Shown here: piece after piece, positions 10,365 through 33,859 of the stretch
Layout of the letters: each line of letters opens with the position of its first letter
Position numbering within the stretch: the first letter of the stretch is position 1
Assembly (NCBI GenBank): GCA_963668695.2
Contig: CAXXLQ010000004.1
Span: 2,752,001-2,816,000, forward strand
Length of the DNA stretch: 64,000 nt
Source: Vicinamibacteria bacterium
GTDB lineage: Bacteria > Acidobacteriota > Vicinamibacteria > Marinacidobacterales > Marinacidobacteraceae
Direction: 5' to 3'
Notes under the pieces: generated by a model
Databases searched by the model: none
What the model was told of the DNA's origin: nothing
Seen by the model: the letters and a program-made list of their open reading frames with translations, nothing else
Made by a program: the position numbers and the translations under genes

Positions 10365-10633
10365 CAGCCGGTGGATAAAGTGGCGTGAGCGCCGAGAGCG
10401 GCAGTTCTCCCGGTGGCGGCGAGGCCCAGTTCTCCCGGTGGGGGTCCGGCTGACAAGGCGCGCGAGGGAGGAGCCCCCACCGGGAGAACTGGCCCGGGTG
10501 TATTTCGACCGAAGCGCAACGATGAACGACGCGAAGCGGAGTGTTTCAGCCGGGGCCCCCACCGGGAGAACTGGGGATCGCCGCTCGAGCCCCCACCGGG
10601 AGAACTGGGCCGCGTGACTTTGTCCACAGGCTG
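10365..10633 (-). mobile_element. MITE family A copy 2 (269 bp) with five nested 21-mers
   Basis: TIRs CAGCCGGTGG / CCACAGGCTG; flanks CTGG/CTAG; right flank supplies the apt stop codon. Confidence 0.9.
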
Positions 10634-11191
10634 CTAGGGGTAGTCCAGCACGGTATGGAGCGCAGCGCCGAGTTCCTCCAGCCGGCGCCGGCCGCCAAGC
10701 GCGGGCAGGGCGAGCAGGAACGAAAAGCCGGCCACCTCCGCACCGAGTCGCCGGCAGAGGCGGAACGCGGCGGCCGCGGTGCCGCCGGTTGCGAGCACGT
10801 CGTCCACGATGAGAACGCGCTGGCCCGCGACCAGAGCGTCCGAGTGCACCTCGAGGGAGGCCGTGCCGTATTCGAGTTCGTAGTCCTCGGAAAGGCTGGC
10901 CGCGGGCAGCTTTCCCGGCTTGCGGAGCAGAACCAGACCACTCCCGAGGCCAAGCGCCACTCCGGCCCCGAAGAGAAAACCGCGGCTCTCGATCCCCGCG
11001 ACCGCATCCAGCCCGGACTGTGCGAACGGGGAGGACATCGCCGCGACGGCTTCCCGGAATGCCCCGGAGTCCGCAAGCAGGGGCGTCACGTCCCGGAAGA
11101 CAACCCCCGGTTCCGGGAAATCGGGAACGTCGCGGATGCGGGCTTTCAGCCGCGCGGCGAGCGCGGCCTCAGCGGATGATTCGGAAGTCAT
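10634..11191 (-). CDS. apt: adenine phosphoribosyltransferase
   Basis: PDFPEPGVVFRDVT, GIESRGF, RKPGKLP, YELEYG, VLIVDDVLATGGT. Confidence 0.95.
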   Translation of the reverse strand: MTSESSAEAALAARLKARIRDVPDFPEPGVVFRDVTPLLADSGAFREAVAAMSSPFAQSGLDAVAGIESRGFLFGAGVALGLGSGLVLLRKPGKLPAASLSEDYELEYGTASLEVHSDALVAGQRVLIVDDVLATGGTAAAAFRLCRRLGAEVAGFSFLLALPALGGRRRLEELGAALHTVLDYP

Positions 11192-11456
11192 TTGGCCGCT
11201 TGGCCGGTTCCGGCGCCTCAGCGGCGTCCGCCAGGATGGAATTCACTCGTCCGGGCGTCTCGGTCCGAAGCGCGCGTTCGAAACCGTCCAGGACTTCCGG
11301 AGCGCCGTAGGCGTCGATTCCCACGCTCCCGTCCGACCGGTTCCAGACCGTGCCGGTGATCCCGAACGAACGGGCGAGACGGGCCGTGGCCCACCGGAAG
11401 CCGACCCCCTGCACGAACCCGGAAACCCCGTAGCGTCGAGCGATCTGGTCTCCCAC
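11169..11456 (-). CDS. acyP: acylphosphatase
   Basis: VSGFVQGVGFR and GTVWNRSDGSV signatures. Confidence 0.9.
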   Translation of the reverse strand: MGDQIARRYGVSGFVQGVGFRWATARLARSFGITGTVWNRSDGSVGIDAYGAPEVLDGFERALRTETPGRVNSILADAAEAPEPAKRPNDFRIIR

Positions 11457-11461
11457 CGCGC

Positions 11462-12640
11462 TCAGCGAAGCGTCTCGAACGCGCCTTCGAGGTCTCCCAG
11501 CAGGTCGGCGATGTCCTCGACTCCCACCGAGAGACGCACCAGCCCGTCGCCGATGCCGATGGCGCGGCGCATCGGTTCGGGAATGGAGGCGTGGGTCATG
11601 GTGGCGGGATGGTTCGCCAGGCTTTCGACACCCCCGAGGCTCTCGGCGATGTGGAAGATGTGCAGCGCCTCCATGACCTTCCGGGCGCGGGCCATGGTCC
11701 GGACGTCGAAGGAGAGCATGCCGCCGAACCCGCTCATTTGGCGGCAGGCCAGTTCGTGTCCCGGATGGCCGGGCAGTCCGGGGTAGTAGACCGCGGCGAC
11801 CTCCGAATGCCCGGCGAGCATCCGCGCGATCTCCCCAGCGTTGGTGTCGTGCCGCTCCATCCGCAGCGCGAGCGTCTTGGAACTCCGCAGGAGGAGCCAG
11901 GAATCGAACGGCGACAAAATCGCACCCGCGGCGTTTTGGAGGTATTTGAAGCGGGACAGGTGCTCGGGGTCGCGCGCCACCAGGATTCCGCCGACGCCAT
12001 CGCTATGTCCGTTCAGGTACTTGGTGGAGGAGTGGACCACGATGTCGGCCCCCAACTCGAGGGGCCGCTGGAAATAGGGGGACATGAAGGTGTTGTCCAC
12101 CACCACCACGGCGCCTACGGAGCGAGCGGCCGCCGAGAGAGCCTCGAGGTCCGCGATCCGCAGCAGTGGGTTCGTGGGCGTTTCGAGGAACAGCATCGCG
12201 GCCCCGGCGTCCAGTTCGCGGATCGTGCCGGCGGTGTCGCTCGTGTCCATCCAGGTGAAATCGAGTCCCCGGGGGCGCAGCACGTTCTCGCACACCCGGT
12301 AGGTGCCGCCGTAGCTGTCGTTGGTGGCGACGACCCGCCCGCCGCTCGGCACCAGCTCGAGGGCCATCACGATCGCCGCCATTCCGGAAGCGCACGCCAC
12401 CGCGCCTGCGCCTCCTTCGAGAGACGCCATGTTCGTTTCGAGCGCGTTGCGCGTCGGGTTGCCCGTTCTCGAGTACTCGTACTTGCCCGGCCGGCCCGGG
12501 GACTCCTGAATGAAGGTCGCCGACGTGACCAGGGGGACGACGACTGCCCCGGTTCCGGGGTCGGGATGCTGGCCCGCATGAATCGCGCGGGTGGCGAAGC
12601 CCGCGGAGGTGCGCTTGGGTGAGGAATCGCTGGGCGGCAA
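11462..12640 (-). CDS. cystathionine gamma-synthase/gamma-lyase (Cys/Met metabolism PLP enzyme)
   Basis: FATRAIHAGQ, YSRTGNPTR, ETPTNP, VDNTF, HSSTKYLNGHSD, ESLGGVESL; start inferred at TTG 12640. Confidence 0.9.
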   Translation of the reverse strand: MPPSDSSPKRTSAGFATRAIHAGQHPDPGTGAVVVPLVTSATFIQESPGRPGKYEYSRTGNPTRNALETNMASLEGGAGAVACASGMAAIVMALELVPSGGRVVATNDSYGGTYRVCENVLRPRGLDFTWMDTSDTAGTIRELDAGAAMLFLETPTNPLLRIADLEALSAAARSVGAVVVVDNTFMSPYFQRPLELGADIVVHSSTKYLNGHSDGVGGILVARDPEHLSRFKYLQNAAGAILSPFDSWLLLRSSKTLALRMERHDTNAGEIARMLAGHSEVAAVYYPGLPGHPGHELACRQMSGFGGMLSFDVRTMARARKVMEALHIFHIAESLGGVESLANHPATMTHASIPEPMRRAIGIGDGLVRLSVGVEDIADLLGDLEGAFETLR

Positions 12641-12694
12641 GGGCGCCGATTCTATCGGCCGTCCGGTGCCATAATCCGGGCCGGACAAGACACT

Positions 12695-13045
12695 TTGGCG
12701 GACGTGAACCCGAACACCGTTTACCGGGTGACATTCCTGAGTCAGGGAGAGGTGTACGAGCTCTATGCCCGTTCGGTCAGTCAGGGCGGGATCTTCGGGT
12801 TCGTCGAGGTCTCCGATCTGATCTTCCGGGACGAAACGAAAAAGCTCATCGATCCCTCGCGAGAGCGGATCGCGAACGAGTTCAAGGGGGTGCCCCGAAC
12901 GTTCGTGCCGCTCCACGCGGTACTCCGGATTGATCAGGTGGAACGGGAAGGGGAGGCCCGGATCACCCCGAGCACCGGGGAAACGAAGCGCGGCCAGGTC
13001 CGTCTGTTCCCCGCCCCGATACCCACGCCCGTGTCGGATTCCTGA
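12695..13045 (+). CDS. DUF1820 family protein
   Basis: YRVTFLSQGEVYELYA...FGFVEV...DPS.ER...EF.GV.R.F.P.HAV.RID pattern. Confidence 0.8.
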   Translation: MADVNPNTVYRVTFLSQGEVYELYARSVSQGGIFGFVEVSDLIFRDETKKLIDPSRERIANEFKGVPRTFVPLHAVLRIDQVEREGEARITPSTGETKRGQVRLFPAPIPTPVSDS

Positions 13046-13056
13046 ACAGCGCCCGG

Positions 13057-14784
13057 TTGGGAGCTGAGCCCGTGACTTCTCGCGCACCGGCTGGTTTTGT
13101 CGCGTTCGCGCTTGCCCTGGGCCTCATGTCATTCCCCCCCGGCGCCGGGCGCGCCGAGGCGGCCCAGCCGCCTACGGCCGCCCTGGACGAAGTGTTCAGA
13201 GAGTGGGACCGGGACGATTCTCCCGGCTGCGCGGCGGGCGCGCTCCGGCGCGGGGCGTTCGTGTTCCGCAGCGCCTATGGAATGGCGAACCTGGATCACA
13301 CGGTCCCGCTCACCCCGGATTCGATCTTCCGGATGGCCTCGGTGTCCAAACAGTTCACGGCGGCGGCGGTGCTGGTCGCCGAGGATCAGGGGCTGCTTTC
13401 GCTCGAAGATCCGCTGCGGAAACATTTTCCCGACCTCCCGGACTGGGCCGATCCGGTCCGGATCAGGCATCTGATCCATCACACCAGCGGCATTCGCGAC
13501 TACCTGGTGGTCATGGCGCTGCGCGGCCTGGGGGACGACGCCTACTACACCGATGCCGACGTGCTGCAGGCGCTCCGCCAACTCGAACGGCTGAACTTCG
13601 AACCCGGCAGCGAGTACCTCTATTCCAACTCCGGCTACTGGCTGCTGGCCCGGTTGATCCACCGGACCTCGGGGAAAACCCTCCGGGAATTCGCGGCGGA
13701 GCACCTTCTCGGCCCGGTCGGCATGACCGCCAGCCACTTCCACGACCGGCAACGGGAAATCGTGCCGGGGAGGGCCACCGGCTACCGGCTTCGTCCGGAG
13801 GCCGAGGGGGGCGGCTTCGAGGTGGATGCGACGACGCTCGAGATGGTGGGCGACGGCGGCCTCTACACCTCGGTGAATGAGCTCCGCCACTGGGAGCGGA
13901 TGTTTCTCGATCCCGCGGCGCTCGGGCCGGACTTGTTACATCGCCTGGTGGCTCCGGGGCGTTTCAACGACGGCTCGGTCCAGGACTACGCGGGCGGCCT
14001 CGGGCTCGGCGAGTACCGCGGGCTCGCGACGGTTTCCCACGGCGGCGGATTCGTTGGCTTTCGGACCTATGCGCTTCGTTTCCCCGAGCAGGAGTTCGCG
14101 GTCTTTGTGCTCTGCAACTCCGCGAGTGCCGATCCCGGCGAGCTCGCCCGCCGGGTCGCGGACCTCTTTCTCGCGGATCACCTGGTTTCCCCGGGGGCGG
14201 CTTCGGAATCGATCCCCTCCGAGGACGCGGGACTGTTACCCGGGAAATTCTGGGAGCGCGCCTCCCGATCGCTCGCCTCCATCGAGCGGAAAAATGATGG
14301 CGACGGGGGCGGTCTCTTTTTGATCAGGGGCGGCGCTCGAACGCCGCTGTCCGTCGTCGAGGGTGAGCTGTCGGGGTTCGCCGGGGAACCGCGGCTCCGC
14401 CTCGAATTGCAGCCGGACGGCTTCATTCTCCGGCAGCCGGGACAGCGCGACTTCCGCTACGCCCGGGTCGAACCGTACGGGCGGGAGCAGGGGGAACCCG
14501 CGTTCGACGAGATGGTGGGGCTAACGGGATCCTTCCGCTGTCGGGAACTGGGCGTGACCTACGAGGTGCGTCCCGACGCGCGGCCGGGGCTCACCCTGGT
14601 CGGCGCCGGCGAGGAGCGGGCTCTGGAGCCGGTGTTCGTGGACCCGGAGGGGTCCTCGCCGGTGTACGCCTGGGACGGCGGTACCGTGCGTTTCCTCCCC
14701 GATCCCGATCCGGGCGAAGACCGCGCCCGGGGGTTTGAACTGTCGGCGGGGCGGGCCCGCGGGTTCTTGTTCGTGCGGGAGTAA
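13057..14784 (+). CDS. secreted serine hydrolase (beta-lactamase/AmpC-like family)
   Basis: Signal peptide, SVSK (SxxK), HTSG, YSN, HGG motifs. Confidence 0.85.
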   Translation: MGAEPVTSRAPAGFVAFALALGLMSFPPGAGRAEAAQPPTAALDEVFREWDRDDSPGCAAGALRRGAFVFRSAYGMANLDHTVPLTPDSIFRMASVSKQFTAAAVLVAEDQGLLSLEDPLRKHFPDLPDWADPVRIRHLIHHTSGIRDYLVVMALRGLGDDAYYTDADVLQALRQLERLNFEPGSEYLYSNSGYWLLARLIHRTSGKTLREFAAEHLLGPVGMTASHFHDRQREIVPGRATGYRLRPEAEGGGFEVDATTLEMVGDGGLYTSVNELRHWERMFLDPAALGPDLLHRLVAPGRFNDGSVQDYAGGLGLGEYRGLATVSHGGGFVGFRTYALRFPEQEFAVFVLCNSASADPGELARRVADLFLADHLVSPGAASESIPSEDAGLLPGKFWERASRSLASIERKNDGDGGGLFLIRGGARTPLSVVEGELSGFAGEPRLRLELQPDGFILRQPGQRDFRYARVEPYGREQGEPAFDEMVGLTGSFRCRELGVTYEVRPDARPGLTLVGAGEERALEPVFVDPEGSSPVYAWDGGTVRFLPDPDPGEDRARGFELSAGRARGFLFVRE

Positions 14785-14790
14785 GGGATC

Positions 14791-15423
14791 GTGTTTCGGA
14801 TCCCCCCGCGGGCGCTCGCCGTGTTCGTGGCGCGGGGTGTGCTGGGTCTCGTGTTCTTCATGGCGGGCTGGTGGAAGGTGTTCGAGATGGGAGCCTTGGA
14901 ACACGCACGATCTCTCTTCGTGGGGCCGTACGCGGAGAGCTGGCTGCCGGCGTGGGCGCTTTGGGCGCTAGCAGCCTGTGGCGAAACCCAGGGCGGCGTT
15001 CGGCCGGCGATCCATCCCGGCTGACCGCGTCGCTTCGCGCCGCTCATCGTTGCGTTTCGGTCGAAATACACCCGGTATTCCTCCCTCACGCGCCTTGTCA
15101 GCCGGGCGCCTCCCCGGCCTCGGCGCTCACCCGGGTTCCACTACAGGCTGCTGAGGACAGCGGTGCCGTTCGTGGAGCTCATCGCCGGGGGGTTGATGCT
15201 GGCCGGGTGGATGCGGTGGCCGGCAGCGCTCGGACTCGGGGGAGTGCTGATCCTGGTGACCTTCGGGCATCTGCTGGCGGAGCCGCTCTTTGCCTTCAAC
15301 GCGCATGTGATTCCGCGCACACTCTTGCTGGTCTTGGTGCTCGCGCTCTTCGAGGAGGACCGCTGGAGCGTGGATGGATCGCTCGCGCGGCGCCGGGCGG
15401 CGAAACAAGCGCAGAATCGCTGA
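14791..15423 (+). pseudogene. DoxX-family membrane protein interrupted by an in-frame MITE
   Basis: ARGVLGLVFFMAGWWK N-terminus and PFVELIAGGL C-terminus are in the same frame, separated by a 183-bp insertion containing TGA 15022-15024. Confidence 0.8.
14972..15150 (+). mobile_element. MITE family A copy 3 (inside doxX)
   Basis: TIRs CAGCCTGTGG / CTACAGGCTG; flanks CTAG/CTGA. Confidence 0.9.
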
Positions 15424-15846
15424 CCGGTCGCCCCGCGGACTGACCGGGCGCGAAGCCGATCCGGCGGTATTTTTGGAACCACTTGGGCATGATGGACAGT
15501 TTCCCGGACTCGGTGAGCGATGCGGACATCGCTCAGCTTCTCGAACCCGTCGCGCTGTTGGACGAGAAAATCGAAGAGCAGATCGGCTGTCGGATCGTGG
15601 AGGTGGGCGAGGTGATTCCGGTGCCCGATGGAGCACCGCAGGGGTGGAACGAGGACGAGCAGCGATACCGGCGCACTTGCCCGGTCCTTGCGGACGAAGC
15701 CCAGATTCTTGGCTTCTACCTGGACGACGAGAACCACGGGTCCCCGAAGGCACCGGGGCAAGCCAATTCCTCATGTGGGACCTTCAGCTACTTGCGGCCC
15801 GTGCTCGAAATCTGGCCGTGTCCGGGGTGCGAAGTGGACGCTCTAA

Positions 15847-16067
15847 CAGCCTGTGGTGAAAGCACCCCGCACCGGCCCCGGAACGTCCCGCGCGCCGAAT
15901 CTGGGGGTTTGTGTGCGTGCGGGGCGCTTCCCCCACAGGTTGGTGGTGCGAATCGCTGCGCGATTCACTCCACCGTCTTTCGTGGGGAGGGGAAACCCCT
16001 CCCCACACCCCACCCCCGCGGCGCTGCGCGCCGCGAATGGATGCCTTCAGAGTTCCACCACAGGCTG
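15847..16067 (+). mobile_element. MITE family B (221 bp; same TIRs, unrelated interior), TSD CTAA/CTAA
   Basis: CAGCCTGTGGTGAA...TTCCACCACAGGCTG with perfect CTAA duplication at 15843-15846 and 16068-16071. Confidence 0.9.
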
Positions 16068-16162
16068 CTAACCCTTCACGAACTCCTCCACATCCTCGGC
16101 TTCGTTCACTATGGGGATCACGACAAACTCGATCAAGGGAGGGGTGTCCCAATGTTTCCCCC

Positions 16163-16222
16163 CCTGACCTGGAGCACCTGACCTGGAGCACCTGACCTGG
16201 AGCACCTGACCTGGAGCACCTG
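16163..16222 (+). repeat. 14-bp tandem repeat CCTGACCTGGAGCA x4 plus partial
   Basis: Exact units start at 16163, 16177, 16191 and 16205. Confidence 0.95.
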
Positions 16223-16323
16223 GCCGGGTGCCGGTACAGTGCTTTCGGAGGACATCGACCTCCTGCGCTGCGTCTTCCCGGAACAGTGACGCGTTCTCCG
16301 TTTCGTCAGGGGTGGGCCTTTAA

Positions 16324-16521
16324 CAGCCTGTGGCAAAACCCACGCGGCGTTCGGTCGGCGATGCATCCCGCCCGAACCACTCCGCTTCGCTCCGTTCTTC
16401 GTTGCGTTTCGGTCGAAATACACCAGGTATTCCTCCCTCACGCGCCTCGTCGGACGGGCGCCTCGCCCCCACCGGGAGAACTGGCCGACCTCGGCGCTCA
16501 CGTGAGTTTCACCACAGGCTG
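16324..16521 (+). mobile_element. MITE family A copy 4 (198 bp; one nested 21-mer)
   Basis: TIRs present; flanks TTAA/TTAG. Confidence 0.9.
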
Positions 16522-16550
16522 TTAGGTGGGTCACGGGAGACCCTGTTCAA

Positions 16551-16784
16551 CAGCCTGTGGCAAAACCCACGCGGCCCAGTTCTCCCGGTGGGGGCTCGCC
16601 CGGCGATGCATCCCGGCTGAACCTCTCCGCTTCGCTCCGTTCTGTGTTGCGTTTCGGTCGAAATACACTCGGGCCAGTTCTCCCGGTGGGGGCTCCTCCC
16701 TCACGCGCCTTGTCAGCCGGGCGCCTCGCCCCCACCGGGAGAACTGGCCGGGCTCGGCGCTCACGTGGGTTTCACCACAGGCTG
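16551..16784 (+). mobile_element. MITE family A copy 5 (234 bp; three nested 21-mers)
   Basis: TIRs present; flanks TCAA/TTAA. Confidence 0.9.
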
Positions 16785-16921
16785 TTAACGTCCGACGTGA
16801 TCCCCCGCCCACGACCGTAGCGCGGCGGCCGGGATGCTGGTAGCATGACCGTCGCAAGCAGCAGGTGACCGGAGGTTTCGTCGCGAAGCGACGGGGCCGC
16901 GTGTTGAAGGGGAAGAGACTC

Positions 16922-18085
16922 ATGTCGAAACAAACTACTCGTCGCGATGTTCTCCGGCGCGGTGTCGCGCTGGCCGGGCTCGGGGCCTTCGGCGTGCCGG
17001 AATGGGCGTTTCCCGCCCTCGCGCAGGGTGAGGAGCTCGTCGAGTTCACGGACCTGCCGAAAGAGATCGTGCTGGAGCGGACGCCGGACCGCCGCATCAT
17101 CGACGTCCGGAATATCGACGGGCCGATCACGCCGGCCGACCAGTGGTTCACCACCCAGCACCACGGCCATCCGGAGATCGATCCGGACACCTACCAGTTG
17201 AAGGTGTCGGGCATGGTGAACGACACGCTCAGTCTGTCGCTGGCCGACCTCCGGGCGATGCCCAGCCGGGAGCTGGTGTTCGGGTTCGAGTGCTCGGGCA
17301 ACCGGGGCCCGTTGAACGGGTCGTCGAGCAACGGGCGCTGGACCGGCGTCCCGCTGCGGACGGTCCTCGAGCGGGCGGGCCTGCAGGATCGCGCCCGCGA
17401 GATCGTCTTCTTCGGGGCCGATCACGGCGAGGAAGAGGTGGTGTTCCGTTTCGGGACCCACAACGTCGACCAGCAGTACGGCCGTAGCCTGCCGCGGGAC
17501 AAGGCGCTGTCGGACGAGCCGCTGCTGGCCTACGCCCTGAACGGCGAACCGCTGACCGTGCACCAGGGCCGTCCGCTCCGGCTGCTGGTCCCCGGCTGGT
17601 ACGGCGCGCCGAACGTCAAGTTCCTCTCCGGGATCCACGTGCAGGAGGACCCCTATCTCGGCAAGTACCAGGCGCGCTGGTACCGCACCCTGAAGGGGGA
17701 GATGATCAACGGCGAGATGAAGTGGGTCGAGACCGCGATCACGAAGATGCGGCTGAAGTCGTACATCGCCCGGGTGACGAAGGTGGGCGACCACCACCGC
17801 GTCTTCGGGGTGATCATGCACGACGGCACTCCCATCGAGTCGGTCGAGGTGCGGGTGGACGACGGTCCGTGGCAGGCCGCGACCCTCGACCCCACCATGA
17901 CCGAGAAGTACTCGTGGAAGTTCTTCACGTACGACTGGCGCGGGGCGACGCCGGGCGAGCACACCGTCACCTCGCGCGCCACCGACGTGAGCGGCTACCG
18001 GCAGCCGACGGCCGAGGAGCTCGAGGTCAAGCGGACCCGCCTCGAGCAGAACAACCAGCATCCGCGGACGCTGATCATCGCCTGA
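16922..18085 (+). CDS. Tat-exported sulfite-oxidase-family molybdoenzyme
   Basis: TRRDVL twin-arginine signal, FECSGN Mo-ligand Cys, WTGVPL, HQGRPLRLLVPGWYG, C-terminal Ig-like dimerisation domain. Confidence 0.9.
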   Translation: MSKQTTRRDVLRRGVALAGLGAFGVPEWAFPALAQGEELVEFTDLPKEIVLERTPDRRIIDVRNIDGPITPADQWFTTQHHGHPEIDPDTYQLKVSGMVNDTLSLSLADLRAMPSRELVFGFECSGNRGPLNGSSSNGRWTGVPLRTVLERAGLQDRAREIVFFGADHGEEEVVFRFGTHNVDQQYGRSLPRDKALSDEPLLAYALNGEPLTVHQGRPLRLLVPGWYGAPNVKFLSGIHVQEDPYLGKYQARWYRTLKGEMINGEMKWVETAITKMRLKSYIARVTKVGDHHRVFGVIMHDGTPIESVEVRVDDGPWQAATLDPTMTEKYSWKFFTYDWRGATPGEHTVTSRATDVSGYRQPTAEELEVKRTRLEQNNQHPRTLIIA

Positions 18086-18182
18086 CGGAGGGCGCCGGCG
18101 CTCCGTTGTCCTTCCGGCGGCCCTGCGGACACGTTCTGCGGGCCGTCGTCGCTTGCGCGCCATGGCGAGCGTGGGGCTGGGG

Positions 18183-18326
18183 GAGCCGCTCTTCGCCTTC
18201 GACGTGCACGTAGTGCCGCGGACGGTATTGCTGGTCGTGGTAATGGCGCTCTTCGAGGAGGACCGCTGGAGCGTGGATGGATGGCTCTCGCGCCGCCGGG
18301 CCGCGAGGGCAGGCCAGGATCGCTAA
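18183..18326 (+). pseudogene. diverged duplicate of the doxX 3' end
   Basis: EPLFAFDVHVVPRTVLLVVVMALFEEDRWSVDGWLSRRRA...* aligns with 15280-15423 (EPLFAFNAHVIPRTLLLVLVLALFEEDRWSVDGSLARRRA...*). Confidence 0.85.
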
Positions 18327-18411
18327 CCGTCGGCCCCCCGATATTCTTCGGACTCCGTGGGGCGGTTGGGCCCCACCTCGTTCCCCCAGCCCGGCTTCGA
18401 CCATCTTGACC

Positions 18412-23206: not shown

Positions 23207-23314
23207 GGGGGGCAGTGTACCGAGCGGCCCCGGCGATCGGCGCTCTTCTCCTGGCGGTGACTCCGCTCGATCCGCGCCTCCCGATGGTTCGCCCCGGCCA
23301 ATCGACACTGTCAG

Positions 23315-23520
23315 CAGCCGGTGGTGAAACCCACGCGGCGTTCGAGCGGCGATGCATCCTTGCTGAACCGCTTCGCTCGTCGTTGCGCTTCGGTCGAAAT
23401 ACACCCGGGCCAGTTCTCCCGGTGGGGGCTCCTCCCTCGCGCGCCTTGTCAGCCGGGCGCCTCGCCCCCACCGGGAGAACTGGCCGCTCTCGGCGCTCAC
23501 GCGGATTTCGCCACGGGCTG
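23315..23520 (+). mobile_element. MITE family A copy 6 (206 bp; two nested 21-mers)
   Basis: TIRs CAGCCGGTGG / CCACGGGCTG; flanks TCAG/CTAG. Confidence 0.88.
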
Positions 23521-23535
23521 CTAGTGTTCGCCCGC

Positions 23536-23991: not shown

Positions 23992-24048
23992 TTCCGGAGG
24001 ACGCCGCCACTTGGCCATGACGCCGGGTGGCCGTCCGCAGAAAGCACG

Positions 24049-25809: not shown

Positions 25810-25813
25810 GCAG

Positions 25814-26404
25814 GTGACTTCCGATCCGGTGGAGCGACCGAGGCCGCACATCCTCGCGGTCTGGGTGGAGGACCTTCCCGGGGTCCTGAACCGCGTCACC
25901 TCGCTCTTCCGGCGCCGCGGCTTCAACATCGAGTCGCTCACCGTCGGACCCGCGCGAGCCCCGGGGGTGTCCCGGATGACGATCGTGCTGCGGGCGGACC
26001 CGACGGCCGCGCGCCGGATGCTGGTCCAGCTTTCCCGTCTCGTCAACGTGCTGCGCATCGACGAGATTACGAACGAGCCCACGATCCGCCACGAGCTGGC
26101 CATGTTCAAGGTCTCGGCCGCCCCCGAGGAACGCTCCCAGGTGATCCATTTGGCGGGTGCTATCGGGGCCCGCCTGGTGGATATCGCGCCAGGGTCGGTG
26201 GTGATCGAGGCCACCGCTTCGCCGCAAAAGATTGATGGGCTCGCCGAAGTGCTGCGCCCCTACGGGATCCTGGAACAGGTTCGCACCGGAATGGTCGGGA
26301 TGGCGCGGGGCGCTGCGAGCGTCATGACCGACCCGGATGCCCGGAATCCACCGAAACGCCGGATCTCGCGGGACGAGGACGACGGCGGATCGCAGTCCGT
26401 TTAA
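25814..26404 (+). CDS. ilvN: acetolactate synthase small regulatory subunit
   Basis: ACT domain PGVLNRVTSLFRRRGFNIESL; follows ilvB. Confidence 0.93.
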   Translation: MTSDPVERPRPHILAVWVEDLPGVLNRVTSLFRRRGFNIESLTVGPARAPGVSRMTIVLRADPTAARRMLVQLSRLVNVLRIDEITNEPTIRHELAMFKVSAAPEERSQVIHLAGAIGARLVDIAPGSVVIEATASPQKIDGLAEVLRPYGILEQVRTGMVGMARGAASVMTDPDARNPPKRRISRDEDDGGSQSV

Positions 26405-26583
26405 CAGCCTGTGGCGAAACCCAGGCGGCGTTCGGCCGGCGATCCATCCCGGCTGAACCGCGTCGCTTTGCGCCGCTCATCGTTGCGTTTCGGTCGCAAT
26501 ACACCAGGTATTCCTCCCTCACGCGCCTTGTCAGCCGGGCGCCTCCCCGGCCTCGGCGCTCACCCGGGTTCCACCACAGGCCG
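26405..26583 (+). mobile_element. MITE family A copy 7 (179 bp) between ilvN and ilvC
   Basis: TIRs present; flanks TTAA/TTAG; left flank contains the ilvN stop codon. Confidence 0.9.
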
Positions 26584-26707
26584 TTAGGATTTTCTCAGCA
26601 GCGAAGGCAGACTCTCCCTTTCTTGTCACGCCCGCGGTTTGCGGGCGCCTTTGACGCAACGTTTTCCGGCGAAATGGACGCTTCGCCGCCCCCGGAGGAT
26701 CTCTTCC

Positions 26708-27721
26708 ATGGCCACCATTTACTACGACGACGCGGCGGATCTCGAACTGATCCGCAGCAAGAAGGTTGCCGTCTTCGGCTACGGCTCGCAGGGCCACGCG
26801 CATGCCCTCAACCTCCGCGACAGCGGCGTCGAGGTGCGGATTGCGCTCCACGCCGGGAGCCGCTCCCGCGCCCGGGCGGAAGCCGAAGGACTCACCGTGC
26901 TCTCGGGAAGCGAAGCGGCGGCCTGGGCCGACGTCATCGTCCTGCTGACTCCGGACACCACCCAGGCGGGGATCTACGAGGAGCAGGTGGCGCCGCATCT
27001 GGCGCCCGGCAAGACGCTCATGTTCGCCCACGGCTTCAACATCCGGTTCGGCACGATCCAGCCACCGGCGCAGATAGACGTTTCCCTTATCGCACCGAAG
27101 GCGCCGGGTCACCGGGTCCGCGAACTGTTCATCGAGGGCGGCGGGACTCCGGCCCTCGTTGCCGTCGAGCAGGACGCTTCGGGGAGCGCGTTGGCGCTCG
27201 CCCTCTCCTATGCCCGGGGGGTCGGCCTCACCCGCGCCGGAGTGATCGAGACCACGTTCGCGGAAGAGACCGAGACCGACCTCTTCGGAGAGCAGAGCGT
27301 CCTCTGCGGCGGAGTCAGCGAACTCGTCAAGGCGGGCTTCGACACGCTGGTGTCCGCCGGATACCAGCCGGAGATCGCCTACTTCGAATGCCTCCACGAA
27401 CTCAAGCTGATCGTGGACCTGATGTACCGCGGCGGCCTCAACTACATGCGCTACTCGGTCAGCGACACCGCCGAACACGGCGACTACCACGGCGGCCGCC
27501 AGATCGTCACCGAGGAGACCCGCGAAGCGATGCGAAAGATCCTCGAGGACGTGCGGAGCGGCGCCTATGCCAAGGGCTGGATCGATGAAGATCGGGAGGG
27601 CCGACCCAACTTCATGGCGCGCCGGCGGGAAGAACAGGAGCACCAGATCGAAACGGTCGGCGCCGAGCTGCGGCGGATGATGCCCTTCCTGGACGCCGTC
27701 ACCCTCAAGGAGTCCGTCTGA
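26708..27721 (+). CDS. ilvC: ketol-acid reductoisomerase
   Basis: [38 protein letters not shown]. Confidence 0.96.
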
Positions 27722-27783
27722 TTCCGGAGTCCCCACTCCCCGCTTCCCCGTAACATCTCCGGTTTCGTCCGGGGAGGCGCGTC

Positions 27784-30411
27784 ATGCTGCGAGTCACGGT
27801 TTGTGCACTGCTGGTCCTTGGTCCGGGACTTTCTGGAAGCTTGGCCGAGGCGCAGGTGCCGGCGCCGGCGGATGTCCTCGGTTTCGAGCCCGGGGACGAC
27901 TACCAGCTCGCGCTGTGGGGAGAACTGACCCCCTACTACGAGCAGCTCGCGGCAGCGAGTGATCGGGTCGAACTCCGGCAGATCGGCGAAACCGTCCTCG
28001 GGAAGCCGCTTCTCGTCCTCTTCATCTCCTCACCGGAGAACCTCGCGGAGCTGGACCGGCACCGGGCGAATGCCCGCGCGCTGGCCCACGCAGCGATTCC
28101 GGAAGAGGAGGCGGTGCGCCTGTCCCGCGAAGGCAAGGCGGTCGTCTGGATTGACGCCGGACTGCATGCCACCGAGGTGGCGCCGGCGCAGATGATGCCG
28201 CTCCTCGCCCACCGGGTCGCCACCGAGGAATCGGAGGAGACGCGGAAGATCCGCGACGAGGTGATTCTCATCCTCATGCCCTCCATGAACCCCGACGGAC
28301 TCGACATCGTCGCGTCCTGGTACCGCCGGAACCTCAAGACCCCCTTCGAGACCACCCGGCCGCCCGAGCTCTACCACCACTACGTCGGGCACGACAACAA
28401 CCGGGACTGGTTCATGAACAACATGCCCGAGACGGCGGCGGTGAGCCGGGTCCTCTACCACGAGTGGTTCCCCCAGATCGTCTACAACCATCATCAGACG
28501 GGGCCGGCCTGGGCCCGGATCTTCCTGCCGCCCTTCGCGGACCCGGTGAATCCCAAGATCCATCCCGGAGTCACGACTGCGGTGAACCTGATCGGTTCGG
28601 CGATGGCGAACCGCTTCGCGATGAAGAAGATGCCGGGCGCGGTCTCGGACATGATCTACTCGATGTGGTGGAACGGGGGTATGCGCACCACCCCCTATTT
28701 CCACAACATGATCGGTCTGCTGACCGAGACTTCGCACGCCTCGGCGAGTCCGAGGATGTACGACCCCGAGGAACGCCCGGAGTTCGTCGGCAATCCCCGC
28801 CGGGGGCAGGCGGCTCCCACGAACGGCACGGATGTCTTCTATCCCTATCCCTGGCCCGGCGGGGAATCGTCCTTTTCCGATCCGGTCCGCTACACGCTCA
28901 CCGCTTCGATAGCGGTGCTGGACGTGGCGGCCGACCTTCGCGAGAAGTGGCTCTTCGACATCTGGCGAATGGGCCGCGACGCGATCGAGGGGAGCGATGC
29001 GAGCTGGATCGTGCCAGCCGACCAGTGGGACCCGGGGGAGGCCGCGGCGCTCGTGAACGTGCTTTATGACGGGGGCATCGCCATCGAGCGGGCGGAAGAA
29101 GCGTTCGAGATCGACGGAGAAACCTACGGCGAGGGCACCTACATCATCCCTGGAGCCCAGGCGTTTCGCGCGTATGCCGACGACCTGCTCGAGCCGCAGG
29201 AGTACCCCGACCGGCGTCGCACCCCCGACGGGCCGCCCGATCCCCCGTACGATCTGGCGGGCTGGACGCTGCCCATGCAGATGGGGGTGCGGGTGGATCG
29301 CGTCACGGAGGTTCCGGAGGTCGCATCCGCGCCGGTGGACGCTCCGGTTCGCGCCCCCGCGGGAGAAATCTCCCCAGGCGCTTCCTTCGGCTATGCGATT
29401 TCGCACCAGCCGAACGCCGCGGTGATTGCCCAGAACCGGCTGCTCGCTGCGGGCGCCGAGGTCTCCTGGGCCGTGGAGGAATTCCGCGACCAGGGGACCG
29501 ACTACCCGGCGGGCACCCTCGTCGTGCGTAAATCGGATCCCGCCGACGCCGCAATGGAAGGAATTGCCTCGGAGCTCGGCCTCGACGTTCGAGGGCTCGC
29601 CGACGCGCCCGGAGTGGAACTCCTCCCGCTGGAACCGGTGCGGGTGGGGCTCTACAAGTCGTACGTCGCGAGCATGGACGAGGGTTGGACCCGCTGGCTG
29701 CTCGAGAACTACGAATACGACCTCACCAGCCTTTCCGACGACGACGTGCGGACCGGCGACCTCTCGCGCCTGGACGTGATCGTCCTGCCGCACCAGACCC
29801 CGGAAGCCATCCTGCAGGGACACGCCCCAGGCACCATGCCGGACGAGTTCACCGGGGGCATTGGCCTTGAGGGATCGCTGGCGCTCAGCCGCTTCGTCGA
29901 GGAGGGCGGGATGCTGCTGACGCTCGACGGCGCGAGCGATTTCGCGATCGCCCAGTTCGGCCTTCCCCTGAAGAACGTCACCGCCGGGTTGGGCGACCGC
30001 CAGTTCTTCATCCCGGGCTCTCTTATCCGGGCCACGGTCGATACCTCCCACCCACTGGCCTTCGGGATGCGCGACGAAGTGGCGACCCAGTTCGTCAGCA
30101 GCCGGGCCTTCGACACCGTGAGCCTGCCGCGGACCCGTGAGGGGGGAGAAGAAACCACCATGGAGCCGCCCCCCGCCAACGTGGAAGCGATCGCTCACTA
30201 CGCCGAGGAGGACATCCTCATGAGCGGTTGGGCGCTCGGCGAGGAGGACGCGATCGGCGGCAAGATCGCCATGGCCCGGGTGCCGATGGGCGCGGGCGAG
30301 GTCGTGCTCTTCGGCTTCCGGCCCCAATTCCGGGGTCAGCCGCGCGGGACCTACAAGTTGTTCCTGAATGCGCTGAACGGCGCCACCGTGGAGGATCTCG
30401 GGGCGCGGTAG
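27784..30411 (+). CDS. second M14 zinc carboxypeptidase-like paralog
   Basis: LHATE, NPDG, HDNNRD, NHHQ; same architecture as 18412-21039. Confidence 0.85.
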   Translation: MLRVTVCALLVLGPGLSGSLAEAQVPAPADVLGFEPGDDYQLALWGELTPYYEQLAAASDRVELRQIGETVLGKPLLVLFISSPENLAELDRHRANARALAHAAIPEEEAVRLSREGKAVVWIDAGLHATEVAPAQMMPLLAHRVATEESEETRKIRDEVILILMPSMNPDGLDIVASWYRRNLKTPFETTRPPELYHHYVGHDNNRDWFMNNMPETAAVSRVLYHEWFPQIVYNHHQTGPAWARIFLPPFADPVNPKIHPGVTTAVNLIGSAMANRFAMKKMPGAVSDMIYSMWWNGGMRTTPYFHNMIGLLTETSHASASPRMYDPEERPEFVGNPRRGQAAPTNGTDVFYPYPWPGGESSFSDPVRYTLTASIAVLDVAADLREKWLFDIWRMGRDAIEGSDASWIVPADQWDPGEAAALVNVLYDGGIAIERAEEAFEIDGETYGEGTYIIPGAQAFRAYADDLLEPQEYPDRRRTPDGPPDPPYDLAGWTLPMQMGVRVDRVTEVPEVASAPVDAPVRAPAGEISPGASFGYAISHQPNAAVIAQNRLLAAGAEVSWAVEEFRDQGTDYPAGTLVVRKSDPADAAMEGIASELGLDVRGLADAPGVELLPLEPVRVGLYKSYVASMDEGWTRWLLENYEYDLTSLSDDDVRTGDLSRLDVIVLPHQTPEAILQGHAPGTMPDEFTGGIGLEGSLALSRFVEEGGMLLTLDGASDFAIAQFGLPLKNVTAGLGDRQFFIPGSLIRATVDTSHPLAFGMRDEVATQFVSSRAFDTVSLPRTREGGEETTMEPPPANVEAIAHYAEEDILMSGWALGEEDAIGGKIAMARVPMGAGEVVLFGFRPQFRGQPRGTYKLFLNALNGATVEDLGAR

Positions 30412-30441
30412 GTCGAACTGGCGTTAGAATCCGCGCTTTCT

Positions 30442-30708
30442 ATGGCCAGAATCTGCAAGTTGACCGGAAAGCGTCCTCTGTCGGGGAACTCCATCAGCCA
30501 TGCCCACAACAAGACGAGGCGGCGTCAGCTTCCCAACCTGCAGTGGAAATCCGTGTGGGTTCCGGAACTGGAGCGGTCCGTCAGGCTGCGCCTCACGACC
30601 AGCGCCCTTCGCACGATTGACAAGAAGGGTCTGATCACCTACCTGAAGGACGAGGGCCTGCGCCTCCGGGATGTCCTCCCGGCCCGCGCCCACTTCCGCA
30701 ACCTGTAA
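30442..30708 (+). CDS. rpmB: 50S ribosomal protein L28
   Basis: MARICKLTGK..GNSISHAHNKTRRR..PNLQ. Confidence 0.96.
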   Translation: MARICKLTGKRPLSGNSISHAHNKTRRRQLPNLQWKSVWVPELERSVRLRLTTSALRTIDKKGLITYLKDEGLRLRDVLPARAHFRNL

Positions 30709-30755
30709 GGGTCGGTAGGGGCTCCCCCGACCGAGTAGAAGCACGGGGACGGCTT

Positions 30756-30863
30756 GGAACGCCGACCTCCGGTCGGCACCGCCCCGTGGAGCGGGGCGAA
30801 AGCGCGTATCGCCAATCCGCGGGAAGAACGGTCCGTAAGGGAACGCCAGACCTCCGGTCGGCA
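30756..30863. repeat. pair of REP-like palindromes GGAACGCC(A)GACCTCCGGTCGGCA
   Basis: Copies at 30756-30778 and 30840-30863, each a GCCGACC-TCC-GGTCGGC hairpin. Confidence 0.6.
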
Positions 30864-31145
30864 TCGCGGCCTGCAGGGCCGTGAAACCATCTACTGCCAA
30901 TCCCCGCACGGACCGCGCGAGGTGGCAGTAGAACCGCGACTGGGAGGACACCAGACGTTCCGTTGCGCGAAGTTGCGGGACACGGGACGGCCGGTTTGGG
31001 TTCGCGGATGACTCAACGAGGTGTCGGAGCGACAAGACACGGTAGCAAGGAATACGAAGTTCCTGAACGGAAGCGGTGGCTTATCTGGTGTAAGGAAGGG
31101 AGGGGAATAGTCCGCTCTCGGGAAACGCCAATAGGAGGCAAAGCA

Positions 31146-32119
31146 ATGATGACAAACAGAGAAAAGCTCAAGACGGTTACACGAAGGCAACACTACGTCT
31201 GGCGCCACTACTTGGAGGCTTGGGCCGAGAGCAACAGAACGATTCGGGTCCTGCGCGAGGGCCGCAGTTTCGCTGCTGACCCGAAGAATGTAATGGTGCA
31301 GCGTGACTACTACCGAGTGCCGCAGATGACCGAGTCCGACCTTACTATCGTGGCTGGGCTAACGAGGACAGGGAACTCCGTGCTAGACGGTATGAATCTG
31401 AGATTGGCACGGCAGTTTGCCGCTATTGGAAGGGTGTCGTCCGTGATTCAGTCCCTCAGCGGGATATCAGATGACGACAAGAGGATGGCGGAAGCGACCG
31501 CGATCGAAGCGGAGGAGAATCTTCATGGTGCTATCGAACAAGAAGCGGTTTCTATGCTTGCCGAGTTGCGGGAGCAGGACGTTGATTTCTTGGAGAGTTC
31601 TGATGATGCAGCGGGCTTCTACCACTATTTGGCTCAACAGTATTTCCGCACGAAACGACGTCGAGAGCCGATTGCGAGAGTGTTGGAGGAAATGTCGGGT
31701 GACAGAAGCCACCTCAAGAATCTGGTGTGTCACCTTATGGCTGTGACGGTGGGCGGCCGCCTGTTCCGTGACCGGAGCGGGCTAGAGGTGCTGTTCTTGG
31801 AGAACGCAACGAATTCGGAACTCGTGACGGGAGATCAGCCCATCGTGAACCTATTGGGACGGATGGCGAGGAGTCGCCCACCGACCTGGCTCTGTACTAT
31901 CCGCTGACACCTGCTCTCGGGATGGTACTGGCTCCAGCGGGCTACCAGACTGCTGTCGTGGACACTACTGCTGTTCGGGAACTCAACGATTTGATCGCGT
32001 ACGAGTCGGCGGAATTCCTGGTCGCACAGTCGGCGAATTCTCTGGACGTGTACGCGACGCAGGGACTGCCACAAACCAGACCGGTGTGCCGTATCCTAGT
32101 AACCTCACGAGAGAGCTAA
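31146..32119 (+). CDS. DUF4238 domain protein, frameshifted near 31858
   Basis: RQHYVWRHYLEAW N-terminal motif and TGDQPIVN...YYPLTP (second frame); visibly lower GC than neighbours. Confidence 0.7.
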
Positions 32120-32162
32120 GAGGGGCACATGGGCTCGTAACCGCCGAGCGCGCCGACCCGCG

Positions 32163-32576
32163 TCAGGCGGGCAGGAAACCCTGCTCCCCGAAATGCGCGT
32201 CAAACGTGAACGCGTGCCGGATCCGCCGGTCCCGCATCACCTCGAAGGAGAGCCAGTCCACCAGGGAGACATTGCGCCGGGCAGCGGCGAGCATCGCCGC
32301 CGTGGCGCGCCGGTGGAGCTTTTCGTCGATCCAGACGATTTCAGCGACCGGAAGCAGCCCGTCGTGGAGCTGGCGAACCGCCCGCATGCCCAATCGCCGC
32401 GCGATGAGCGCGCTCGATTCCACGAGGATGGCGTGGTGGGTGACGAGGAGCTTCTGCCCCGTCCGAACGCCGGCCAGCAGGCGATCCCAGGTGTGCTTGG
32501 CGTCGTCATGGAACCGGTCCTCGGCGTTAAGGAGAGCGATCAACGCCGACGTATCGAGGAAAACGGAAACCGTCAC
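32163..32576 (-). CDS. vapC: VapC PIN-domain toxin
   Basis: VFLDTSALIA, ILVES, SLVDWLS, FTFDAHF acidic tetrad. Confidence 0.9.
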   Translation of the reverse strand: MTVSVFLDTSALIALLNAEDRFHDDAKHTWDRLLAGVRTGQKLLVTHHAILVESSALIARRLGMRAVRQLHDGLLPVAEIVWIDEKLHRRATAAMLAAARRNVSLVDWLSFEVMRDRRIRHAFTFDAHFGEQGFLPA

Positions 32577-33037
32577 TCCGGCGGCTGCCGCCTCCCCATC
32601 TCCTCAACCAGGATCTCCGCGAACGCCTCGTCGTGTTTCTCGGCGAGGTCGGTACATCCGGAGCGGAAAGCCCCGACCGGCCGCTTGGCGCGCTCGATGA
32701 GGTCGGCGAGCGCGTTGTCTCCGACGTAGGCGTCGAGCGCCTGGCGCAGCAGACCGTCCGGCGACACGCCGAGTTCCGCCGCCAGACGGTGTAACCGCTG
32801 CTTCGCATTCTCGTCCACATCTCCGGCGGTGTCCGAGCCGTAGGGTTGGACCGCCTCCTCTACCCCCGCGGCGCCCGGGGCCGTCGTTGCCTCCGCCTGG
32901 CTCGAGGCGATGACCGGTAACAGGCGCGCGACGGGGCGGCCCCATTTGGTGATGGTTACCGGAGTGCGGGACGCGGCGACTTCGTCGAGGATCCTCAGGC
33001 AGGTGTCCTTGAACTTCCCGGCGGAGATGGAACGCAT
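32573..33037 (-). CDS. Phd/YefM antitoxin fused to a second RHH/VapB-like antitoxin domain
   Basis: MRSISAGKFKDTCLRILDEV...ITKWGRPVARL, then RLHRLAAELGVSPDGLLRQAL...GAFRSGCTDLAEKHD; overlaps the vapC start. Confidence 0.75.
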   Translation of the reverse strand: MRSISAGKFKDTCLRILDEVAASRTPVTITKWGRPVARLLPVIASSQAEATTAPGAAGVEEAVQPYGSDTAGDVDENAKQRLHRLAAELGVSPDGLLRQALDAYVGDNALADLIERAKRPVGAFRSGCTDLAEKHDEAFAEILVEEMGRRQPPE

Positions 33038-33043
33038 GAGCAA

Positions 33044-33061
33044 AGTATAGCCATGGCCATA
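33044..33061 (-). promoter_or_regulatory. -10 box (TATACT) with overlapping palindromic operator for the TA operon
   Basis: TATAGCCATGGCCATA (14/16 palindrome) at 33046-33061; -10 box lies 6 nt from the ATG. Confidence 0.55.
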
Positions 33062-33181
33062 TTCCCGTCCCGTGGACAACTGGGGCCAGCCCTGGACGTG
33101 TTCCTTAGAATCGGACGCGGGGCGCACTGCGCGAAGGACGGGCTTTTTGCGGGGGTTGCGCCTCCCCTTCAGGCCGGTGCC

Positions 33182-33688
33182 ATGACACAACGCGAATGGG
33201 TCGCAAGGATCCGGCCTCGGCTTGCGGAGGTGTTGCCGGACTTCACGGTGGAGGCCGACCGGAAGCTGCGCTACGCCCGGGAGATCCGAGACTTCGAACT
33301 GCCGGAGCCGGGGACCCCGCTTTCGCTGAAAGGCGACGAGAGCGTCGGGCCCTTCGCCATTGATCTGCTGGTGGGCGAAGAGGTGAGCGCTTCGGTCTGG
33401 CGCCCCCGAGTGGCGCTTGAAGTCAAGATCGGAATCACCCTGCAGGACGCGGTCAGCGACGCTCAGAAAGCGTTTCTTCACAAAACCGTCTCGCCGTATC
33501 TGCGCTACGGCGTCCTTCTCCTGGGCTCCGCCGGCGACTCCCGCGAGCTGCTCATTCCCAAAAACGGCCATCTTGACTTCGTGATGTCATTGCCCGGGAT
33601 GGAACTGACGCCGGCGGACATCGAGACGCTGGCAAGACTCATTTGTCAGGAGGCGGGGGCGTCCCGACGACTGGAAGAGCTCGGGTGA
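33182..33688 (+). CDS. hypothetical protein, possible PD-(D/E)xK nuclease fold
   Basis: IDLLV...ALEVK spacing resembles the PD-(D/E)xK catalytic motif. Confidence 0.5.
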   Translation: MTQREWVARIRPRLAEVLPDFTVEADRKLRYAREIRDFELPEPGTPLSLKGDESVGPFAIDLLVGEEVSASVWRPRVALEVKIGITLQDAVSDAQKAFLHKTVSPYLRYGVLLLGSAGDSRELLIPKNGHLDFVMSLPGMELTPADIETLARLICQEAGASRRLEELG

Positions 33689-33859
33689 TCGAAGGCTCAC
33701 CCGCGGCAGATCACACGCTTTGCCGGGCCGGGCGCCATTTGCGCGGCTGGTGACGGGAGTTTCGCGTCCTTCGGCCGCGATGCCGGTCTGAAGGCCCCCA
33801 CCGGGAGGACTGGCCGGCGCTCCGAGCCCGGCTTCCGTAGAATCGGCTCCCCGAGAGGA

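Follow-up and report, generated by a model that had tools for sequence, protein, structure and literature searches.

Very small mobile repeats, whose length is far below what the binding ends of a transposase would need, are to our knowledge described from Nostoc-type cyanobacteria and essentially nowhere else, and since 2008 there has been no explanation of how they move. These small dispersed repeats (SDRs; families SDR1-8) were reportedly described by Elhai et al. in 2008 in Nostoc punctiforme and relatives; several families are said to share a secondary structure and some to be self-nesting. Here we describe U, an 18-bp core (CCCCACCGGGAGAACTGG) usually accompanied by one to three lineage-typical flanking bases, in a 64,000-nucleotide stretch of a Vicinamibacteria genome (the window; G000:C4:2752001-2816000). 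G000 denotes the source genome (4.10 Mb, 67% G+C, four contigs, C1-C4) and G001 a sister genome. On balance, the data incline us to regard U as a very small, non-autonomous, insertion-competent DNA block, that is, an SDR-like micro-element, which behaves as one of the smallest mobile elements of DNA so far described. SDRs are its closest analog: Both are ~20 nt long, abundant, noncoding and embedded in MITEs (transposable elements of miniature size with inverted repeats) or other repeats, with filled and empty sites as evidence of mobility and no encoded enzyme. U differs in belonging to another phylum (Acidobacteriota), in having no sequence similarity to SDRs, in lacking a hairpin and self-nesting (it forms tandem doublets only), and in occurring also in three housekeeping genes and in a hairpin repeat that flanks a transposase-like gene. 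According to PMC5861425, no SDR-like repeat was found outside Nostocaceae. U would then add a separate case from a second phylum, one for which the comparative evidence is unusually clean.

Three other systems invite comparison. Modular repeats include pneumococcal BOX elements, enterobacterial repetitive intergenic consensus (ERIC) sequences with internal insertions at discrete sites, and the bacterial interspersed mosaic elements (BIMEs) of E. coli. Like these, the MITE that hosts U is a fixed-frame repeat with optional internal modules and quantized lengths; here, in contrast, a single 18-bp module is found at at least six positions and in both orientations, and it turns up as well in genes and in another family of repeats. 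Rickettsia palindromic elements, as outlined in PMC10969869, are palindromic repeats of ~150 bp that sit in frame in unrelated housekeeping genes. U resembles them as a selfish repeat in frame in such genes, but it is about a tenth of their size and is read in three reading frames. Finally, repetitive extragenic palindromes (REPs), their inverted doublets (REPINs) and the associated RAYT transposases are characterized, in Bertels and Rainey 2011 (PMC3116915), as short extragenic repeats, inverted doublets and hairpins. U is likewise short, extragenic, highly repeated and often in inverted doublets, and in relatives a Y1 (IS200-like) gene is flanked by the clade's REP. However, U is non-palindromic and is inserted into the REP, and the genomes richest in U have no RAYT. 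A literature search found no paper containing a 16-mer of U on either strand, and among the papers listed in another none dealt with repeats in this clade.

The 18-bp unit and its proposed points of entry

A 21-mer query (GCCCCCACCGGGAGAACTGGC, up to three mismatches) recovered 13 copies in the window at the coordinates and strands of the original prediction, with a chance expectation of 0 in 100 shuffles. Across G000 it had 1,634 matches (599 exact), with information content near maximum at positions 3-20 and a sharp drop outside positions 1-22. Same-strand neighbors lay exactly 18 bp apart in 151 pairs, and the repeating core is therefore the 18-mer. A genome-wide count, proposed as a check for the 21-mer in the original prediction, gave for the 18-mer 1,631 copies with up to two mismatches, 1,288 of them exact, or ~0.7% of the genome. 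U is nearly all intergenic: Only 16 of the 1,634 21-mer matches fell inside crude gene calls (codon log-odds) covering 75% of the genome, nearly all 16 at the edges of open reading frames, and 99% of copies were outside genes. Single units make up 1,336 of the 1,480 runs, alongside 140 doubles, two triples, one run of four and one of five. The preponderance of single units and their dispersal over 663 clusters ruled out a simple tandem repeat produced by slippage. A DNA uptake sequence, which has a point-mutation origin, genic copies and no indel edges, was ruled out by the sharp 18-bp indel boundaries and the extragenic location. It is extremely unlikely that U is an artifact of assembly or chance. 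G000 is a metagenome-type assembly with haplotig contigs and a contamination figure of 9.3%, as such an artifact would have it, but there are the empty shuffles, a reversed-pattern control with 0 matches in 41 genomes, and the presence of U in many independent assemblies. Contig ends from other sequencing runs also carry U as loose ends (e.g., GCCAGTTCTCCCG).

The original prediction proposed a very small mobile or templated element, and this is supported by in-frame entry into unique coding DNA, clean differences of 18 or 19 bp, and the use of other MITE positions in another genus. An AcrB/RND gene (1,039 amino acids) contains an exact in-frame U in G000 and G001, read as PHRENW at amino acid 405; of the 12 genus genomes, the 10 others show a gap of 18 bp there. 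No microhomology donor was found for this insertion, as the AcrB copies alone carry that flank. Among six genomes compared, mfd has U in frame (+18) in G012 and lacks it in G007, G005, G013 and G000; G010 has a 12-bp U-like remnant (ACCGGGAAAACTGG) at the same position, and G007, a closer relative, has none. The mfd position is either an insertion hot spot or a place of precise loss of U. The third gene, coaBC, has U in frame on the other strand in G010 and in none of the five others (six genomes). Each of the three coding copies is read in a frame of its own, and coding copies were seen in frame only.

Most other copies belong to a host repeat that we call family 1. The original prediction took the hosts to be MITEs, and this was borne out by a terminal inverted repeat (TIR; ACAGCCKGTGG...CCACMGGCTGT) at both ends of 336 two-ended copies, flanking TA dinucleotides and a body of ~175 bp (~180 bp overall). 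The target-site test gave TA at both ends, and the empty sites in G001 hold TA or a diverged TA. MITE-type left flanks were found for 1,349 of the 1,631 U units (83%), leaving about 17% outside the MITE. Statistics refer to the 294 two-ended copies of 160-340 bp, the 42 shorter or longer copies being dropped. Lengths of the family-1 MITEs are quantized as 175+18n. With U removed and the copies aligned, 116 of the 294 are empty and 178 bear U. Five positions on the masked consensus recur:

A28, minus strand: 37 units
B62, plus strand: 30 units
C108, minus strand: 98 units
D139, plus strand: 124 units (123 in another tally), often as a tandem doublet
E145, plus strand: 75 units

Rarer are a mirror of D on the minus strand, present in the MITE at 10365, and reverse-oriented inserts near E. 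As predicted, each insert adds 18 or 19 bp relative to insert-free copies; the gain is 18 bp at A, B, C and D, and 19 bp at E and in the REP hairpin. There is no target duplication at U; next to the inserts at A, B and C, one to three bases are not those of the empty copies.

Orthologous MITEs and REPs show clean differences of 18 or 19 bp between the sister species. One MITE that holds no U in G000 has a clean +18 at site A in G001, with the junction GGGG|GTTCG where GGGG|GCTCG is common. For a second orthologous unit, the filled state is that of G000 and the empty one that of G001, and in a further orthologous MITE, U sits at D in G000 but at E in G001. At window position 33794, G000 has a filled REP, whereas its G001 counterpart is empty (gccggtctgaagaccggc), a 19-bp difference. 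Other lineages use other positions: G018 has four U, all in the same orientation (plus), at four other positions of the homologous MITE, as well as 44-bp REP+U arrays in a REP of different sequence. The single exact U of G020 is in a diverged MITE, at site C; in G019, U occupies the mirror-of-D site, and in G010 and G012 a reversed site near E.

These data bear on a rival account, in which U arose once per site in the MITE or REP, is itself immobile, and spread by transposition of its host, descent, unequal recombination and gene conversion. We consider this passive account rather unlikely. Three in-frame insertions into housekeeping genes, in different lineages and with no flank homology to U-bearing repeats, speak against it, as do the clean +18 at A with its uncommon junction, the differing MITE positions and orientations of other genera, the identity of U where REP and MITE have diverged, and the filling of two REP subtypes (TCTGAAG and TGTGAAC) at the identical position. 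In its favor are the occupancy shared by similar MITE copies, the constant junctions with their linked polymorphisms, the arrival of most G000 copies along with whole MITEs, and the many products of U-U recombination, all set out below.

Host repeats, occupancy and copy number

The window contains the following host elements:

10364..10634, minus strand: family-1 MITE, reverse of the canonical orientation, with five U (21-mer starts 10400, 10425, 10473, 10555 and 10589)
16323..16522, plus strand: family-1 MITE with one U at E (16465-16485, plus); TA-flanked
16550..16785, plus strand: family-1 MITE with U at A (16575, minus), C (16673, minus) and E (16728, plus)
23314..23521, plus strand: family-1 MITE with U at C (23409, minus) and E (23464, plus)
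36880..37050, plus strand: empty family-1 MITE, the reference; absent in G001
38848..39028, plus strand: family-1 MITE without U (GCAGCCGG TIR subtype); not present in G001
2873..3053, plus strand: empty family-1 MITE missing from the original prediction
14971..15151, plus strand: empty family-1 MITE missing from the original prediction; absent in G001
33760..33823, plus strand: REP-type unit, a variable hairpin followed by GCCGGTCTGAAG[GC+U]CCGGC, with the GGAC variant of U at 33794-33814
3064..3112, minus strand: degenerate REP-type context with a diverged U at 3078-3098 (three mismatches to the 21-mer)

The last two copies had been taken for free intergenic variants; both lie inside the clade's REP-type hairpin. 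This second host is a hairpin family with the core GCCGGTCT-GA-AGACCGGC, preceded by a variable hairpin, and it holds ~142 units (9%). Here, U replaces one base of the 3' arm, for a net gain of 19 bp. Some whole MITEs of the window are missing elsewhere: The one at 10364..10634 is absent at the orthologous site in G001 and G008, contigs of sequencing runs have loose ends at 10364 and 10635/6, and a contig of one run (X5) spans the place of the MITE at 23315 with 69 letters versus the window's 303.

A nested order of occupancy had been proposed from the four filled MITEs of the window. It does not hold genome-wide, where single-site classes abound (C only, 22; single D only, 16; E only, 15; double D only, 10; B only, 5; A only, 3), and C+E (15) and about 30 further combinations also occur among the 294 MITEs. 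Because all site combinations occur, the nested order is a small-sample artifact of the window. The claim of five fixed sites survives in part: The predicted sites 1, 2 and 3 correspond to A, the mirror of D and C (all minus), and sites 4 and 5 to D and E (both plus), but site 2 is rare genome-wide and there is a sixth common site, B. Orientation is fixed per site. A rule by halves of the MITE holds for A, C, D and E but not for B, which is on the plus strand in the left half; the reverse-oriented inserts near E also run counter to it.

As had been noted, different TIR subtypes include both filled and empty copies, and filled MITEs do not form one clade in a phylogeny with U masked: At least 38 state changes are needed for the presence of any insert. 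With about 17% of copies outside the MITE as well, the outcome that was to refute the original prediction was therefore not observed. The tree (FastTree, 198 masked copies) is weakly resolved; support reaches 0.9 or more at 27 of its 192 nodes. Distance and tree work used copies with a masked length of 181-187 bp; the haplotig contigs C1 and C3 were left out of the tree and of the conservation counts. Changes on the tree, with the mean of shuffled states, were as follows:

site C: 9 changes; shuffle mean 50.9
site B: 10 changes; shuffle mean 20.3
site A: 14 changes; shuffle mean 16.6
site D: 38 changes; shuffle mean 45.8
site E: 34 changes; shuffle mean 38.8

Occupancy at C and B is largely inherited, and A, D and E are close to random. 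Nearest masked neighbors gave the same ranking with more clustering for A, sharing occupancy at 0.90 versus 0.29 by chance for C, 0.78 versus 0.11 for B, and 0.60 versus 0.09 for A. Among MITE pairs diverged by up to 3%, 31 of 116 differ in occupancy. The proposal that filled states arose by repeated insertion or gene conversion rather than single descent is thus upheld in that filled MITEs are not one clade, but occupancy mainly by repeated insertion is unsupported. The inherited states at C and B are what the passive account would lead one to expect.

Whole-MITE transposition is also in keeping with that account. We compared 400 kb of G001 (~94-96% identical) with the syntenic region of G000, which has 57 repeat islands. 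Both anchors were present in G001 for 44 of these, and ~20 of the 44 islands were absent there, with TA at the empty site, which argues for a recent MITE burst that carried inserts along. Most copies of U are passengers of MITE bursts, not independent insertions. From the inherited occupancy at C and B, the constancy of junctions (see below) and whole-MITE insertions, it follows that copy number reflects hitch-hiking on the MITE plus recombination between copies. A micro-element can in this way reach 0.7% of a genome, and then drive deletions, doublets and long perfect hairpins.

Products of recombination between U copies are common. In several deletions, the left flank is that of U at site C and the right flank that of U at site A; these are U-U recombinants and yield mini-MITEs. 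Tandem arrays of 71 bp consist of the MITE 5' end (53 bp) plus U (e.g., G000:C1:82285-82530 and C4:304418-304600), and haplotigs differ there by three units. C1 and C3 are haplotigs of parts of C4 (99.5% and 97.6-99.7% identical; C4:304184-421223 and C4:3505137-3538141). They probably explain the contamination figure of G000 and supply strain-level polymorphism data. Of the 23 comparable haplotig repeat clusters, four differ in U count; the differences include one clean 18-bp presence or absence at site D with a linked G/A single-nucleotide polymorphism (SNP; 97.6% identity), one single versus double D, and one deletion the size of a whole MITE.

A search for an autonomous partner of the MITE turned up three DDE_3 (IS630-like) loci in G000, whose TIRs (GTGTGGTGTCC in the intact one) are not that of the MITE; other transposase families were outside this search. 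The intact IS630-like element (TA target; ~904-2102 of G000:C4:666125-669565) sits between a MITE and a 79-bp mini-MITE (TIR+U+TIR), and a 98.6% identical, non-syntenic copy is present in G001. A plasmid collection contained no match to the MITE.

Conservation and the weight of the evidence

The exact 18-mer was found in 15 of 15 other genomes of the genus, in five of nine from the family's other genera, and in none of 16 from two sister families; within the family, G017, G021, G022 and G024 are free of U. Exact copies range from five to 1,288 per genome within the genus. In a scan of 185,579 species genomes, the matches listed were to Candidatus Marinacidobacterium and to Vicinamibacteria or Acidobacteria metagenome-assembled genomes, plus single strays. 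Between orthologous repeats of G000 and G001, U differed at 6 of 414 positions (1.4%) versus 284 of 2,896 (9.8%) for host and flank (Fisher 5e-11), as measured on 23 shared units in 400 kb of one sister genome with both units recognizable (up to three mismatches). In G000, the variability of U is 6-15 times lower than that of the MITE on average, but the MITE has 18-bp windows of equal conservation too. Positions of U are not conserved between species: Of 30 loci in five low-copy species, one pair matched on both flanks, and a conserved master locus was rejected on this count.

Such conservation could mean that U is a functional site for the host, binding a conserved protein (nucleoid, regulatory, or methylation/restriction), as the original prediction also allowed for a protein, or acting as an RNA motif under purifying selection; insertion would then be no more than the way in which such sites come about. 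The exact family-wide 18-mer and its low orthologous divergence favor a site of this kind, as do inverted pairs of U, which form perfect 21-bp stems and number 294 within 200 bp. This explanation is nonetheless quite unlikely given the shifting positions between species and the range of copy number in one genus, presence or absence that differs between 99.5%-identical haplotigs, the decay of old solitary copies, and coding insertions in three reading frames. The placement of U also speaks against it and is of a selfish type: Orientation relative to flanking genes is balanced (473:460), and density is equal across convergent, divergent and tandem intergenic regions. No strand or replichore bias was found in 200-kb bins across G000. 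A terminator-like placement was rejected, as there is no preference for intergenic type or orientation. Conservation and distribution fit a sequence constrained by its copier better than host-beneficial sites.

A number of points weigh against U as an insertion-competent block. Demonstrably independent insertions are few, in roughly 10-20 contexts. Gain and precise loss are ambiguous for the differences between G000 and G001, as the outgroups (four for the REP at 33794) lack the host repeat. Junctions of U are constant within a site class and come with linked SNPs; single D is always ccggAc, and double D is ccggGc plus the GGAC variant. Most filled states could therefore spread by descent or gene conversion. 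Some junctions have adjacent substitutions (21 nt replacing 3), which are unexpected under simple cut-and-paste. The divergence contrast has the narrow base given above and is weaker for solitary and REP-borne units alone (4/72 vs. 18/141), the MITE-borne units carrying the effect. No enzyme is tied to U. The original prediction saw no mobilizing enzyme in the window, and this still holds, G000 having no Y1/RAYT (no PF01797 match and no tblastn hit) and no RVT_1. The presence of RAYT does not follow the copy number of U: Y1_Tnp is absent from G000, G004, G018 and G019, which have 1,288, 631, 220 and 36 exact copies.

Candidate machinery for insertion

HUH enzymes of the IS200/IS605 type insert without duplication into single-stranded hairpin DNA. 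Insertion of the HUH/IS200-type Y1 kind into hairpin DNA is also covered in PMC3116915. Y1_Tnp genes are present in 15 of 28 family genomes and in 13 of 15 in the genus. At three of the four RAYT loci examined in relatives, the GCCGGTCT-GA-AGACCGGC hairpin flanks a single-copy Y1_Tnp (RAYT-like) gene, and the hairpin is therefore the clade's REP. U itself stands next to the RAYT gene at one of the four, as a U-filled REP in G014. The RAYT-like gene, REP-flanked, sits between RidA/L-PSP and M16 peptidase genes in G014, G001 and G013; in G000 and G004 the syntenic locus is reduced to the RidA side, and RAYT appears to have been lost there. RidA/L-PSP and M16 peptidase paralogs are also the only recurrent neighbor proteins of U, which we did not take as meaningful. 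As genomes without RAYT can be rich in U, high copy number stems from hitch-hiking on the MITE and does not require RAYT. RAYT stays a candidate for rare primary insertions, because the basal home of U is the RAYT-flanking REP.

Could U simply be the REP of this RAYT, with inverted pairs as REPINs moved by the Y1 transposase? The spread of Y1_Tnp in the family, the rank of the RAYT-flanking hairpin as the commonest home of U outside the MITE, and the many inverted pairs at fixed spacings (mostly 48 or 55 bp) are in line with this idea. We regard it as very improbable. U alone is unstructured and non-palindromic (21-mer -1.4 kcal/mol, z 0.54), and with U inserted, the REP hairpin is lost (z 0.0). 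What separates the two copies of an inverted pair is ordinary MITE sequence, found in empty MITEs too; RAYT is missing from four genomes with many U; and REP varies between genera, which U does not.

Filling does change the folding of the MITE. As a single strand, the empty reference at 36880..37050 forms a hairpin that is long but imperfect (-41.8 kcal/mol, z -4.3), whereas in the filled MITE at 16550..16785 the A and E copies pair perfectly (-80 kcal/mol, z -9.9), so that the folds compare as -80 versus -42 kcal/mol; a C/E pair gives -31 kcal/mol. A hairpin-mirror origin of the sites, by quasi-palindrome template switching, was rejected as a general explanation, with A and E offset by ~11 nt; only D and the rare site of the MITE at 10365 are at mirror positions.

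Taking U as an insertion-competent block, the data show the following course. U enters as a sharply bounded block, with a net gain of 18 or 19 bp, at G+C-rich sites, in either orientation and with no target duplication. Its usual targets are hairpin-forming repeats (the hairpin of the REP, and a number of fixed positions along the arms of the TA-flanked MITE), and rarely genes. Once inside the MITE it is multiplied passively by MITE transposition, as for ~83% of the ~1,600 copies, and U-U recombination yields deletions (mini-MITEs), doublets and 71-bp arrays, with exchange between MITE copies shuffling occupancy. From the identity of the 18-mer across genera, and from a rate of change ~7 times below that of its hosts, we infer that a conserved factor acting in trans recognizes U and copies or rewrites it. 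The insertion step itself might, as a guess, be strand transfer or repair-coupled copying of a fragment with fixed ends into single-stranded or hairpin DNA or into breaks.

Several routes for this step can be named. HUH/Y1 (RAYT)-linked processing of the REP-U unit is one tentative possibility. Capture or template-switch copying during break repair is just as tentative; Ku is present in G000, and such repair-coupled events fit because of the adjacent base changes and the variation between +18 and +19. A dedicated system of a new kind is less probable than either of these. A reverse-transcriptase-templated origin was rejected, as G000 has no RVT_1; TnpB-type proteins gave no match above the cut-off in G000; and a source in rRNA was rejected, the 6 kb around the one 16S site found being free of U.

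We also considered, as an unlikely reading of U, that in a family of sponge-associated Acidobacteria a trans-acting system, which is no known transposase, reverse transcriptase or RAYT, writes a fixed 18-nt word with no duplication of the target, either templated or from an excised oligonucleotide, and keeps the copies identical. Such a system would prefer hairpin-forming repeats, and would also write in frame into essential genes. If true, the system would stand for a class of templated DNA insertion that is new, and U would be the smallest of mobile units with a defined sequence. The genomes that carry U, with five to 1,288 copies and with or without RAYT, form a tractable set in which to seek the responsible factor.

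Some features of the data stand apart from U. An Rfam scan of the window returned one tRNA and nothing else. A block of tens of kilobases at C4 ~22-55 kb is repeated at ~3.79-3.83 Mb (identical MITE pairs and double BLAST hits); this repetition near the start and end of C4 is either real or an overlap left by the assembly of a circular chromosome. Long arrays of tandem ~63-bp units, unrelated to U, lie at G000:C4 ~976-979, ~2554-2556 and ~2887-2888 kb and are present in G001 too. In the crude gene calls, window positions 44483-54415 and 54657-59495 hold two very long open reading frames (3,310 and 1,612 amino acids). Finally, the sequencing runs that contain window DNA are sponge metagenomes or sponge sequencing runs.

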